Assembly (NCBI GenBank): GCA_965202725.1
Contig: OZ241845.1
Location: 665,437-729,436, forward strand
Length of the DNA stretch: 64,000 nucleotides
Direction of reading: 5' to 3'
Source of the DNA: Candidatus Poribacteria bacterium
GTDB lineage: Bacteria; Poribacteria; WGA-4E; WGA-3G
Of this stretch, positions 56,128 through 63,828 are shown in pieces. Below the pieces are notes generated by a model. It worked only from the letters and a program-made list of their open reading frames with translations, did not search any database and was not told the origin of the DNA. How positions within the stretch are numbered: position 1 is the stretch's first letter; the number at the start of each line of letters is the position of its first letter. Both the position numbers and the translations under genes were made by a program.

Positions 56128-56182
56128 TATGGGGTGGGTACCCCGCCCATACGCATGTCTCAAAAATGGGGCGAAAACATGA
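56128..56182 (+). repeat. ~60-nt conserved intergenic element, copy 2, 45 nt upstream of the first Omp85-like gene
   Basis: CGTATGGGGTGGGTACCCCGCCCATACGCATGTCTCAAAAATGGGGCGAAAACAT. Contains a GGGTACCC palindrome. Confidence 0.5.
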
Positions 56183-56225
56183 TTTTAACGAAAACCCTCA
56201 AAAAAGCGATTGATAGGAGTCCCCG

Positions 56226-58472
56226 GTGAAAGAGAATATATTCGTTTTACTTCTACTGCTTTTAACCTCGTTTCCACCAGCGACTGCTGAGTCACCAAAT
56301 GGAAAAATCCCTTTTGATTGCCCTGATGTCCCAAATCCCAAATTCCAATTCCATTTCCCCCGCGAACTCATCTCACTTGCCGGTACGACATTCCCCTTTA
56401 ATACCGTAGAAAGCATTTATATCCATATTTACGACAACGAAGCAGATACCTTTCGCAAACTCGTTCAGTATTACACTGAAAACTTGAAAGCAGAAAACTG
56501 GCACAACTCGTATGAAGACAGCACAAAGCATCTCTATACATTGGAATCTACGCCTGTCGAAAATCAACAAGTAGGGAACACAGTTTTGGGTATCTTTGCG
56601 GTCGTCCAAAGCAACGGTGATGTACATCTCCTGAACATTGTTGGCAATATTCCATCGAGACAGGTACGGAAACTCTTGACGAACCTTGGAGAACTCGGTA
56701 TCTATATTCCTAAGTTAGCATCGGTTGGCGAACTGTCATTTCTGACATCCAAGGAGATAGTAGGATCCATGCCGCTGCCAACGTTGTTTCGGATAAGTAA
56801 AGATTCAGCAGTTACCAACCAAACTGACGGTGCCTTTCTTCCTGCTTCCTTTGAAGAGAATCAACACGGACATTGGACCTATCGTGGGTATCCAATAGAG
56901 CGCATTCAAATTCTATCAAGCGATATAAAACAGGTTGCTGCAGTAAGCGATAGATTGAAAAATGGAGCAAGAGACATCACCGAGTTACTGGATAGCCTGT
57001 CGTCAAACAATGACTCCAAGCACACACCGAGGTTCATCGTGCTGCCAGCGGAAAAAACGATTACAATTCGGGCGGGCCGCATGATAGATGAAACGCAGCC
57101 CACTACACTCGTAAAATCGTTTCAGACACAGGCCGGATACCCGATCCATGAGATTGTAATTCGAGGGCACCAGTACACCGAAGCAAATACGATTCGGACA
57201 GCACTTGAAAAGGGGCCTGTAGAAATTGAGGCGGTGGTTGACGCACTCCCCGACACAGTGCAAGCTTTTGAAAAGGTGTCCCTCTCAATTGAAGAGATAG
57301 ATTCCCGACGGACGGCGATAATTACGGTGGTAGAGAACCCCCCCGCCTTGCAATTTTATATAGAAGGGGCACCGCACCTTGGATTCAACCGCGTTACGGG
57401 ATGGGAACTTGGCGCAGGCATTGAATCCAGTTTTCGGGCACAGAAAAAACACGACTTAGCCTTTACATTCGGTTTTTCTTCTGAAGCTGCTCAAGAGGAG
57501 AACTCGAAACTCTTCGGACGAATTGGTTATGGATTCAGCGACAAACGCCCCTACTATCAGATTGGTGGCAGAGCCGTTTGGGAAGAACCGTATTCATGGC
57601 ATCTCGGGGTGAACGCCCAATACCATCGTGGAATCGGCATTATCGCCCCCGATCTTTTTTCGCACTCCAACGATACAGCGACGTTACTTCTCCGAATTTT
57701 TGGCGTGCCGGATCATCAGGATTACTACTTGAGACACGGAGTTGAAGTCGAATTGGAATGGAAAGCCGTTTTCCCGAGGCGTCCACACCATTTTCTGAGA
57801 CCTAATCGTTCGTTTAAGTTGATTTTACGTGCTGAGGCACAGGACAGCTTGAAAAAAAACACAGATTGGCATCTTTTCAACTGGGGTTCAAAAGCAGAGG
57901 TACGCGAAAATCCAATTATAACGCAGGGTCAAATGCAGAGTGCGATGTTCAGATACGAGTTTGATACTCGCAATAATTATCTCGGTTCACACCATACTTT
58001 TCTCGTTGAGCATAGCAATCCAGCGTTCGGTTCCGATTTTAATTGGACGCGTTTTCAAGCGCACCTTCGGTATGCCTATCCCATCAGGGCCCATCAAATC
58101 CGAGCCCGAGCAGTCGTCGGTTCCTCAACAGCACCGCTCCCGATTCAGCGACAATTTGTGATCGGCGGCATTGGAACGCTTAACGGTTACCCCCTCTACG
58201 CTTTTGCAGGTGATGCCGGATTGCTTTTTAACACAGAGTTTATCTATAAGTTGTTCAGTTTCGGAAATCAGAGTCTCTCCGCCGCGTTGATCTTTGATGG
58301 CGGACAGGTCTGGAACCTCTCTGACAATCAAAGACGTTTCGATCCAAAAGGGAGTGTCGGTCTCGGCTTACAGTTTGAGACAGATGTTGATATTTTCCGG
58401 TTCAATGTCGCGAAAGCACTCGAGGCTGAGCAAAGGATTCAATACAATTTCATGTTCTTCTACAGTTTTTAG
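56226..58472 (+). CDS. Omp85-family (BamA/TamA/TpsB-like) outer-membrane beta-barrel protein with POTRA-like repeats and a unique ~170-aa N-terminal domain (copy 1)
   Basis: Signal peptide. POTRA-like IHEIVIRGHQYTEANTIRTALEKG. Barrel motifs RQFVIGGIGTLNGYPLYAFAGDAGLLFNTEFIYKL (Omp85 GG..RGY-like). C-terminal ...MFFYSF. GTG start with AGGAGT RBS. Confidence 0.6.
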   Translation: MKENIFVLLLLLLTSFPPATAESPNGKIPFDCPDVPNPKFQFHFPRELISLAGTTFPFNTVESIYIHIYDNEADTFRKLVQYYTENLKAENWHNSYEDSTKHLYTLESTPVENQQVGNTVLGIFAVVQSNGDVHLLNIVGNIPSRQVRKLLTNLGELGIYIPKLASVGELSFLTSKEIVGSMPLPTLFRISKDSAVTNQTDGAFLPASFEENQHGHWTYRGYPIERIQILSSDIKQVAAVSDRLKNGARDITELLDSLSSNNDSKHTPRFIVLPAEKTITIRAGRMIDETQPTTLVKSFQTQAGYPIHEIVIRGHQYTEANTIRTALEKGPVEIEAVVDALPDTVQAFEKVSLSIEEIDSRRTAIITVVENPPALQFYIEGAPHLGFNRVTGWELGAGIESSFRAQKKHDLAFTFGFSSEAAQEENSKLFGRIGYGFSDKRPYYQIGGRAVWEEPYSWHLGVNAQYHRGIGIIAPDLFSHSNDTATLLLRIFGVPDHQDYYLRHGVEVELEWKAVFPRRPHHFLRPNRSFKLILRAEAQDSLKKNTDWHLFNWGSKAEVRENPIITQGQMQSAMFRYEFDTRNNYLGSHHTFLVEHSNPAFGSDFNWTRFQAHLRYAYPIRAHQIRARAVVGSSTAPLPIQRQFVIGGIGTLNGYPLYAFAGDAGLLFNTEFIYKLFSFGNQSLSAALIFDGGQVWNLSDNQRRFDPKGSVGLGLQFETDVDIFRFNVAKALEAEQRIQYNFMFFYSF

Positions 58473-63032: not shown

Positions 63033-63099
63033 CCCTCAGTGGTTTTGCTAATCAATTCCCCAAAAGCCGAAACCCTTAATTACATTTTCATAAAAAAAC

Positions 63100-63828
63100 A
63101 TGCGAACACTCCAGTTATTAGCCATCTGCTCCCTGATATTCGCGCCGCCTCAGTTGTTGAATTCAGGCGAAGATAGCGACCTCTTCACCTTTGTCCGATT
63201 AAGATATGGCGGTCAACTGACCTTGCGCAGCAGTTGGCGCGTCGATTGGCCCGCCTCTGATCGGAATTTTATCTGGCAACTCCGTAAACAGACAAATATT
63301 AATGCTGCGCCGCGTGAGAAGATTATCGACGTAGGCGCAGCGGAGCTCTTTGATTATCCGTTCGCTTATATGTTGGAGGTCGGAAGTCTGAGGCTCAGCC
63401 AGAACGAGGCGGCGAATCTGCGTGAGTACCTCCTACGCGGCGGATTTATCTTCATTGATGATTTTCACGGACAGCATGAATGGCGGCGGTTTTACAATGA
63501 GTTTAAAAAGATCTTTCCTAAACGAGAACCCGTGGACATTCCCATATCGCACCCCATTTTCCGATGCTTCTTTAAAATTGATGAAGTCATCCAGATACCC
63601 GGACTCCGTTCGTTTTTCAGTGGACGAACCTATGAGCGATTCGACGGCTATCCAGCATATTGTCGTGGGGCCTATGACGACAGAGGCCGCCTTATGATGA
63701 TGATTAACTTCAATACCGATCTCGGAGATGCCTGGGAACATGCCGCCGAGGCTTTCTATCCACGTGAATACTCGGATATGGCACTCAAGATTGGTATCAA
63801 TGCGGTTATCTATGCCCTGACCCATTAA
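63100..63828 (+). CDS. small secreted protein, paralog of 58492..59268 (copy 2)
   Basis: Signal peptide, FTFVRLRYGG, LRGGFIFIDDFHG, FP...IPISHPIFRCFF, and GDAWEHAAEAFYP. Confidence 0.5.
   Translation: MRTLQLLAICSLIFAPPQLLNSGEDSDLFTFVRLRYGGQLTLRSSWRVDWPASDRNFIWQLRKQTNINAAPREKIIDVGAAELFDYPFAYMLEVGSLRLSQNEAANLREYLLRGGFIFIDDFHGQHEWRRFYNEFKKIFPKREPVDIPISHPIFRCFFKIDEVIQIPGLRSFFSGRTYERFDGYPAYCRGAYDDRGRLMMMINFNTDLGDAWEHAAEAFYPREYSDMALKIGINAVIYALTH

Follow-up and report, generated by a model that had tools for sequence, protein, structure and literature searches.

A phylum-wide Omp85-centred gene cluster of Poribacteria with a predicted inner-membrane stalk protein and DUF4159 partners

Omp85 proteins are the universal outer-membrane-building machines of bacteria, mitochondria and chloroplasts. 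To our knowledge, few sets of partners are known for them, namely the Bam lipoproteins, TamB and TpsA. Here we describe a cluster of five genes, A1, B1, C, A2 and B2, in a 64,000-nucleotide (nt) stretch of contig OZ241845.1 (assembly GCA_965202725.1) from a Candidatus Poribacteria bacterium; this whole stretch is called the window below. The cluster had been pointed out in a preliminary description of the window as a candidate undescribed outer-membrane system, and this core observation stands, in that the cluster is real, conserved, undescribed and centred on Omp85 proteins. Calling of open reading frames (ORFs) bore out the order, coordinates and lengths of the five genes, all on the same strand, as well as the reported junction TAGATG, in which the A2 start codon directly abuts the C stop codon. 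The genes and the domains of A1 are as follows (aa, amino acids; AF2, AlphaFold2).

56226-58472, + strand: A1, Omp85-superfamily outer-membrane protein, 748 aa, GTG start, loop-6 motif degenerated to LNGY
56343-56720, + strand: A1 N-terminal periplasmic alpha/beta domain, DUF4252-like, aa 40-165 (AF2 secondary structure, PF14060)
56850-57335, + strand: A1 POTRA-like module, aa 209-283, and canonical POTRA domain, aa 309-370 (AF2, Pfam)
57348-58463, + strand: A1 16-strand beta-barrel, aa 375-746, with the aromatic C-terminus YSF
58492-59268, + strand: B1, DUF4159 protein of the accessory clade, 258 aa, N-terminus very hydrophobic
59397-60569, + strand: C, predicted inner-membrane-anchored stalk protein, 390 aa, with a PA14 head
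60570-63032, + strand: A2, Omp85-superfamily outer-membrane protein, 820 aa, architecture like that of A1 plus a poly-Pro linker, LRGY kept
63100-63828, + strand: B2, DUF4159 protein of the core clade, 242 aa, signal-peptide-like N-terminus

Like the translocation and assembly module (TAM), the cluster is proposed to combine an outer-membrane Omp85 protein with an inner-membrane-anchored partner that spans the periplasm. Unlike TAM, which has one Omp85 protein, it has two Omp85 paralogues; C carries a PA14 head on a Pro-rich stalk instead of a DUF490/AsmA-like domain, and neither the DUF4252-like N-terminal domain of the A proteins nor the DUF4159 partners have a TAM counterpart. On the TamA equivalog model NF047950, A1 reaches 15.5 bits against a cut-off of 625, and none of the five proteins matches DUF490/AsmA. 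The differences from the beta-barrel assembly machinery (BAM) and the sorting and assembly machinery (SAM) are similar in kind: the A proteins have about two POTRA domains where BamA has five, their scores on the BamA model TIGR03303 are 31.2 bits (A1) and 28.3 bits (A2) against a cut-off of 297, A1 lacks the loop-6 Arg, and no cluster protein matches a Bam lipoprotein. With two-partner secretion the cluster shares two POTRA domains followed by a 16-strand barrel and a position beside a gene for a smaller exported protein; the ShlB matches are weak, no TpsA with a TPS domain is adjacent, and B and C match only DUF4159 and PA14. As the preliminary description had held, the cluster thus matches neither BAM, TAM nor two-partner secretion, and searches of the five proteins with Pfam and NCBIfam found no TPS-domain, DUF490 or Bam lipoprotein family. 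The claim that the cluster is undescribed is likewise in keeping with the literature searched, since no description of it was found in work on DUF4159, on Poribacterial Omp85/BamA proteins or on Poribacterial type IX secretion.

A conserved locus around two Omp85 paralogues

To follow the cluster across genomes, we scanned one genome per GTDB species with a profile of the A proteins and typed the surrounding ORFs with phmmer. The scan yielded 69 loci (referred to by L numbers), all of them Poribacterial, and every named homologue of A, B and C comes from Candidatus Poribacteria; the neighbourhood, whose conservation the preliminary description had left to be checked, is therefore conserved across the whole phylum. 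The modal gene order is A1-C-A2-B, found exactly so in 24 loci, and most of the others add extra copies of B or C. C lies directly 5' of A2 in 56 of 63 loci, a B gene follows within 600 nt of the last A in 56 of the 62 evaluable loci, and a second A is found upstream in 50 of 59. An operon is suggested by the junctions of C with A2 and of A2 with B, which are short or overlapping.

A B gene between A1 and C, as in the window, is a minority state and is absent from the closest relatives (75-81% A1 identity). The preliminary description had read the window as a tandem duplication of an A-B cassette that acts as a functional unit. This reading does not survive, because the modal and most deeply conserved order is A1-C-A2-B and the closest relatives have no B1; of the two A-B adjacencies, the one between A2 and B is kept in related genomes and the one between A1 and B1 is a minority state. 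A1 and A2 are indeed paralogues (36% identity over the full length, E 6e-154), and their duplication is evidently ancestral, with the copy numbers of B and C varying around it. We read the cluster as a Poribacteria-specific envelope operon that has been passed on vertically, with the conserved core A1-C-A2-B.

The family calls made earlier for the cluster (Omp85/POTRA barrels, DUF4159 partners and an anchored, Pro-rich PA14 protein) hold with Pfam and AF2. A1 and A2 match Omp85 (PF01103) with 49.1 bits (E 7e-13) and 41.4 bits (E 1.7e-10), respectively, against a cut-off of 24. In a set of 44 family members, 43 match Omp85, 26 ShlB/FhaC (PF03865), 22 DUF4252, nine POTRA (best E 6e-6) and three POTRA_1; for POTRA the window's A2 scores 0.068, and its A1 matches ShlB/FhaC weakly, with 24.5 bits at a gathering score of 22.7. 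A1 was modelled with AF2 from 68 sequences (mean local confidence, pLDDT, 69; predicted template-modelling score, pTM, 0.50), and the model shows a signal-peptide helix followed by the alpha/beta domain, the POTRA-like module, a second POTRA domain with the canonical beta-alpha-alpha-beta-beta order, and 16 strands, at the positions listed above. A 16-strand barrel preceded by one or more POTRA domains is characteristic of the Omp85 superfamily, and the fold of the barrel is nearest to the insertase-type proteins Sam50, TamA and BamA. A PDB sequence search with A1 found the TamA barrel only, and weakly (E 0.1), while NCBIfam returned only far sub-threshold matches of the A proteins to BamA, TamA and TamL; NCBI labels some family members 'BamA/TamA family outer membrane protein'.

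The N-terminal domain shared by A1 and A2 had been taken as novel. It is better read as a divergent DUF4252 domain: of 33 such domains drawn from both paralogue types, 28 match PF14060, with a best E of 1.7e-8. The window's A1 alone scores 17.6 bits (E 0.0045), below the gathering score of 23.9, and a PDB search with a profile of this domain found nothing credible.

The two paralogues differ in loop 6 of the barrel, for which the superfamily hallmark is (V/I/L)RG(Y/F) with a conserved Arg. A2-type proteins keep GGLRGYP, with the Arg retained, whereas 57 of 59 A1-type proteins have G(T/L)LNGYP, in which the Arg is replaced by Asn; the GG..RGY motif reported for both A proteins therefore holds for A2 and not for the A1 orthologues. 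A second motif, (F/L)xDxGQVW, is kept by both types. Judging from these alignments, the split between A1 and A2 is older than the Poribacteria radiation, and the paralogues are functionally diverged, as the loop-6 difference of LNGY versus LRGY marks. A profile search of 1.8 billion representative proteins gave only a handful of full-length relatives. In the next-best matches the similarity is confined to the POTRA-plus-barrel part, and the eight longest of these partial relatives carry CBM9 and several POTRA domains according to Pfam, six of them also DUF4097. Poribacteria have another Omp85 protein, P0317, that is more BamA-like than A (75 bits on TIGR03303), and A1 and A2 are therefore probably not the housekeeping BamA.

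The stalk protein C and the DUF4159 proteins

C has a single strongly hydrophobic segment, which lies at the N-terminus. Its layout comprises a transmembrane helix (aa ~8-27), a spacer rich in Pro (16% over aa 44-135), a Gly-rich segment, a PA14 head (PF07691, aa 243-325; E 2.5e-16, 60.2 bits against a cut-off of 24) and a tail (aa ~355-387) with the conserved sequence IVPPEVIYxPGKPxxPDALKKLQQRLK. The PA14 DDG and xIDG positions are conserved among C orthologues, and NCBIfam gave no matches for either B or C. Within the membrane helix, Ser and His of the motif S12-x3-H16 are invariant in about 70 orthologues, including ones whose identity falls to 25% over the N-terminal 67 residues.

This Ser and His align in register with S18/H22 of Escherichia coli TolA and S16/H20 of TonB (sequences from NC_000913.3). 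In TolA and TonB, these Ser and His residues couple the proteins to TolQR and ExbBD. C resembles TolA and TonB further in having an N-terminal transmembrane helix, a basic residue before the motif, an extended Pro-rich spacer and a C-terminal interaction module. It differs from them in ending in PA14 (or DUF4159) and a short tail rather than in TonB_C or TolA domain III, in lacking significant sequence similarity, and in that no motor genes are seen near the cluster. When a profile of the C N-terminus was run against 2,624 sequences, family members alone ranked above TolA (rank 4, 8.8 bits, E 0.2). Given this weak statistical support, we call C TolA/TonB-like in architecture and do not assign it as a member of either family.

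In some lineages an extra, shorter C-like PA14 gene (about 330 aa) with the S-x3-H anchor lies 5' of A1, at the following positions. The extra protein of L030, the one aligned at the C-terminus, lacks the conserved tail. Other lineages have two tandem C genes before A2.

L004:8808-9806: extra C-like PA14 gene upstream of A1
L011:7669-8652: extra C-like PA14 gene upstream of A1
L028:8050-9048: extra C-like PA14 gene upstream of A1
L030:8963-9946: extra C-like PA14 gene upstream of A1
L048:7964-8962: extra C-like PA14 gene upstream of A1

B1 and B2 belong to DUF4159 (PF13709; E 1e-49 and 1e-51), scoring above the gathering score and sharing the fold of 4i66, a compact globule of the class-I-glutamine-amidotransferase-like (GATase-like) type. 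Related non-catalytic GATase-like domains, besides DUF4159 itself (PDB 4i66, Hoch_4089), are the IFT52 N-terminal domain, OST48 and ThuA-like proteins. What sets DUF4159 apart here from its occurrence elsewhere is a defined genomic partner, an Omp85 protein, and its additional presence on a membrane stalk. The preliminary description had named placement of B in a well-characterised enzyme family as a finding that would speak against it; B matches no characterised enzyme family. The polar residues D120, D121, H123, E213 and H214 are invariant and may mark a binding or catalytic site. B2 is the most conserved component of the cluster: each of the 120 best homologues listed shares 65% identity or more with it, whereas A1 orthologues in the GTDB loci fall to 34-40% identity.

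As had been proposed, B1 and B2 are paralogues (58% identity, E 3e-108). A tree of the DUF4159 core has two clades. The core clade holds the window's B2, and its members are always the last B of their locus. The accessory clade holds the window's B1, the other B proteins encoded in mid-locus position ('mid' B), four long forms and, where A2 is followed by two B, the first of these; B1 groups with the 'mid' and chimeric proteins. A recent origin of B1 as a copy of B2 is ruled out by the 58% identity and by this tree, in which B1 falls within an old accessory clade.

The accessory clade also contains gene fusions. In four loci (L011, L046, L049, L054), A1 and C are separated by a gene for a chimeric protein of 426-442 aa. 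Its anchor and Pro-rich stalk are of the C type, with 52% identity to C residues 1-172, and are followed by DUF4159 (66% identical to B2) and a C-type tail. In the short 'mid' B of L055 and L027, a C-type anchor with S-x3-H is fused directly to DUF4159. The motif has decayed in the B of L018 and L014 and in the window's B1, where the segment is still very hydrophobic; the N-terminus of B1, with a Kyte-Doolittle 19-residue maximum of 2.53, probably remains uncleaved and serves as an inner-membrane anchor of C-type origin. The earlier view of both B proteins as secreted thus fits B2, whose N-terminus is signal-peptide-like, and not B1, which has a hydrophobic N-terminus and orthologues with a C-like anchor. 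Since DUF4159 occurs on a C-type stalk or anchor, PA14 and DUF4159 are, as far as domain order can tell, interchangeable heads on one predicted inner-membrane stalk, and DUF4159 would be able to act in the periplasm.

Two further observations concern the B proteins and their relatives. One lineage has additional genes between its two B genes downstream of A2, in the form of one or two inserted pairs (L078:10851-14617, L079:9251-11040); each pair consists of an AAA_15/AAA_21 ATPase (382-386 aa) and a 210-212 aa protein and looks like a defence-type cassette. In the window, a ThuA-family protein (50000-50635; E 8e-41) is encoded 6 kb upstream of the cluster. It is only distantly related to DUF4159, with which ThuA-like proteins have the class-I-GATase-like fold in common, and nothing ties this gene to the cluster.

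Proposed mechanism and competing explanations

We propose, with a probability of about one in two, that the A1-C-A2-B core encodes a phylum-specific trans-envelope Omp85 machine that works on some envelope component. A1 and A2 would form an outer-membrane pair of one canonical and one degenerate or regulatory partner. The C-type stalks would span the periplasm from the inner membrane, and their interchangeable PA14 or DUF4159 heads, which probably bind glycans, would be presented to the pair's periplasmic domains; the stalks may couple to a TolQR/ExbBD-type motor via the S-x3-H helix, and the soluble B would serve as periplasmic partner of A2. Overall, this would be a TAM-like or Tol/Ton-coupled outer-membrane machine whose job might be to assemble, tether or surface-deliver a possibly glycan-bearing envelope component, and in most genomes it would probably be controlled by the fusion genes for sigma factors of the extracytoplasmic function (ECF) type that lie just upstream. 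More tentatively, and with odds well short of even, the cluster could be a fourth kind of Omp85 system next to BAM/SAM, TAM and two-partner secretion, in which a heteromeric pair, with one canonical partner and one whose loop 6 is degenerate, is coupled mechanically or energetically to the inner membrane via TolA/TonB-like stalks with interchangeable lectin-type heads and handles a glycan-bearing component; DUF4159 and DUF4252 would then gain a first functional context.

Two specialised Omp85 paralogues, a TolA/TonB-like stalk protein and an exchange of PA14 and DUF4159 heads are not known to have been seen together before. If the parts act together, the cluster would add a new set of Omp85 partners, possibly an energy-coupled one, and would give a concrete context to two widespread domains of unknown function, DUF4159 and DUF4252. 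Poribacteria are uncultivated symbionts of sponges that have an unusual envelope and a large number of surface proteins, and the cluster would also bear on how their cell surface is made.

Several points weigh against the proposed trans-envelope machine. The complex, its localisation and its cargo are predictions, and glycan binding by PA14 and DUF4159 is deduced from their folds only. The AF2 model of A1 is of moderate confidence. The likeness of C to TolA and TonB consists of an architecture and a two-residue motif; the TolA match is weak and comes from a small database, TonB scores -5.7 bits, and a PDB search with the C N-terminal profile found neither protein. A Pfam scan of neighbourhood genes turned up nothing like ExbBD/TolQR. 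Four loci (L065, L066, L071 and L073) have no adjacent B, the window has no ECF-sigma fusion gene, and synteny among related genomes can outlast any functional link. Even so, each of the following alternatives is less well supported than the trans-envelope machine.

The ECF-sigma fusion genes raise the question of whether the cluster is instead a trans-envelope signalling module like FecA-FecR-FecI, with Omp85 sensors whose signal is relayed by the DUF4252-like domains and C to the upstream sigma factors. We regard this as unlikely. In 43 of the 55 evaluable loci these genes are found ahead of the cluster and on its strand (only in L066 do they lie downstream), and their products join sigma regions 2 and 4 to large extracytoplasmic domains in at least three architectures across clades, the extracytoplasmic parts being BNR/Sortilin, CarboxypepD_reg/Lectin_C or shorter types. 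Examples, from a range of 1-9 kb upstream of A1 (L006-L074), are listed here.

L080:4202-7213: ECF-sigma fusion gene upstream of A1
L033:7505-9382: ECF-sigma fusion gene upstream of A1
L073:6294-7724: ECF-sigma fusion gene upstream of A1

The recurrence of such genes in several architectures would fit a signalling role, as would the TolA/TonB-like anchor and spacer of C and the presence of stand-alone DUF4252 genes within ECF-sigma operons of Porphyromonas gingivalis, PG0214-0216 and PG0985-0987 (PMC10434189, PMC10101095). However, the window and some deep clades (L032, L037, L039, L041, L042, L053 and others) have no adjacent sigma gene, the promoter of the window's A1 is conserved and sigma-70-type in appearance, and signalling would leave the highly conserved B proteins unexplained. 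Moreover, we know of no Omp85 protein that acts as a signal transducer.

Export of B in the manner of two-partner secretion, with A2 (and A1 where B follows) as a TpsB-type translocator that moves the adjacent DUF4159 protein to the cell surface, appears improbable to us. It would account for the tight, conserved A2-B adjacency, the TpsB-like number of about two POTRA domains, the ShlB/FhaC matches of the A family and the signal-peptide-like N-terminus of B2. However, B lacks a TPS domain and folds as a compact GATase-like globule instead of a beta-helix, and at the N-terminus the A proteins carry a globular DUF4252-like domain in place of an H1 plug helix. The tethering of DUF4159 to the inner membrane by a C-type stalk or anchor fits a periplasmic site of action, and therefore speaks against B as mere cargo exported through A; the model of secretion through A that was implied in the preliminary description is weakened by these variants.

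The export model also has to contend with a close B paralogue in another context. In the Poribacterial loci L075-L077 (L075:2212-10750), a B paralogue is found downstream of PorU-PorV, adjoining two PorZ-like genes; it shares 67% identity with B2 and is the sister of the core clade. The PorU sortase (2,087 aa) scores 432.6 bits against a cut-off of 420 and the PorV/PorQ-family barrel 112 bits against 90. Given these PorU, PorV and PorZ-like genes, Poribacteria carry, by family score, genes of the attachment complex of the type IX secretion system, and DUF4159 is linked by gene position to a second outer-membrane machine. This paralogue is the sole link of the cluster to type IX secretion, as no model of that system matches A, B or C.

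Lastly, it is very improbable that A1 and A2 are ordinary divergent BamA/TamA paralogues for general outer-membrane protein insertion, with the PA14 and DUF4159 genes linked by inherited order only: the NCBI name of some members, the barrel fold nearest Sam50, TamA and BamA, and a restriction to one phylum that would allow inherited synteny are all consistent with it, but the equivalog scores lie far under the BamA and TamA cut-offs, there are two POTRA domains rather than five or three, the C-A2 and A2-B junctions abut or overlap, and the gene order is kept at 34-40% A1 identity while flanks and B/C copy numbers change and domains swap.

The A1 leader and neighbouring genes

Two features were annotated in the 5' leader of A1.

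56019-56047, + strand: sigma-70-type promoter-like site TTGACA-17-TACAAT with a TG extension, 11 of 12 consensus positions
about 56081-56203, + strand: ~120-nt insertion specific to the window's genome, containing the 'conserved element' of the preliminary description

Both promoter hexamers are invariant when the window is aligned with its three nearest orthologous loci, and across seven loci they are conserved for the most part; in the leader alignment with these seven, the ribosome-binding site and the GTG start of A1 are conserved as well. A conserved element of ~60 nt had been reported just upstream of A1. The hairpin, GTATGGGGTGGGTACCCCGCCCATAC at 56127-56152, is present, but it is not conserved: it lies inside the ~120-nt insertion, which is found only in the window and is absent from L080, L008, L040, L007, L006, L009 and L012, the closest relative included. 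No second copy of the hairpin or the insertion was found elsewhere in the window, an Rfam scan of 54300-64000 at E up to 1 gave no match, and the insertion folds barely better than shuffled sequence (z-score -1.97). The 'conserved element' thus fails together with the 'novel domain' and the earlier evolutionary reading of the cluster.

Further upstream, the recurrent neighbours of the cluster across loci are the ECF-sigma fusions, TPR or Trypsin-TPR proteins, an ABC-2 permease and Laminin_G_3 proteins; Pfam identified no motor or Bam/Tam partner among these conserved upstream neighbours. Candidates for motor genes had also been picked by size at 31-33 kb of the window, and proved to be a uridine-kinase-family protein and two Hsp20 proteins. 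Compared with relatives, the window seems to be rearranged upstream of its cluster. The small ORF at 55570-55962, 5' of A1, is a frameshifted remnant, the product of which aligns to residues 1-74 of a 154-aa protein encoded upstream of A1 in L080 and then continues in another frame; its fuller relatives are about 260-270 aa long and look Laminin_G_3-like.

Downstream of B2, a gene for a 257-aa protein weakly matching the PhyH family (Fe/2-oxoglutarate dioxygenase-like) occupies 63949-64000 and runs past the window (L001:10850-11623). Such a gene lies downstream of the cluster in 43 of 70 loci. Its product has no signal peptide, and the link to the cluster is therefore probably one of synteny rather than function.

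The remaining genes of note in the window lie upstream of the cluster. Near a gene for a sulfatase (52963-54291, - strand; matched by Pfam Sulfatase in L001) is an ORF resembling a formylglycine-generating enzyme (51343-52179), and a 113-aa ORF between the two (52570-52911) resembles a gene fragment. A single-polypeptide Type ISP restriction-modification enzyme of 1,085 aa, with N6_Mtase and Type_ISP_C domains, is encoded at 45608-48865 (- strand). At 25154-30199 (- strand) lies the gene for a 1,681-aa protein with six He_PIG immunoglobulin-like repeats and two lamin-tail domains, which is probably a large surface protein.

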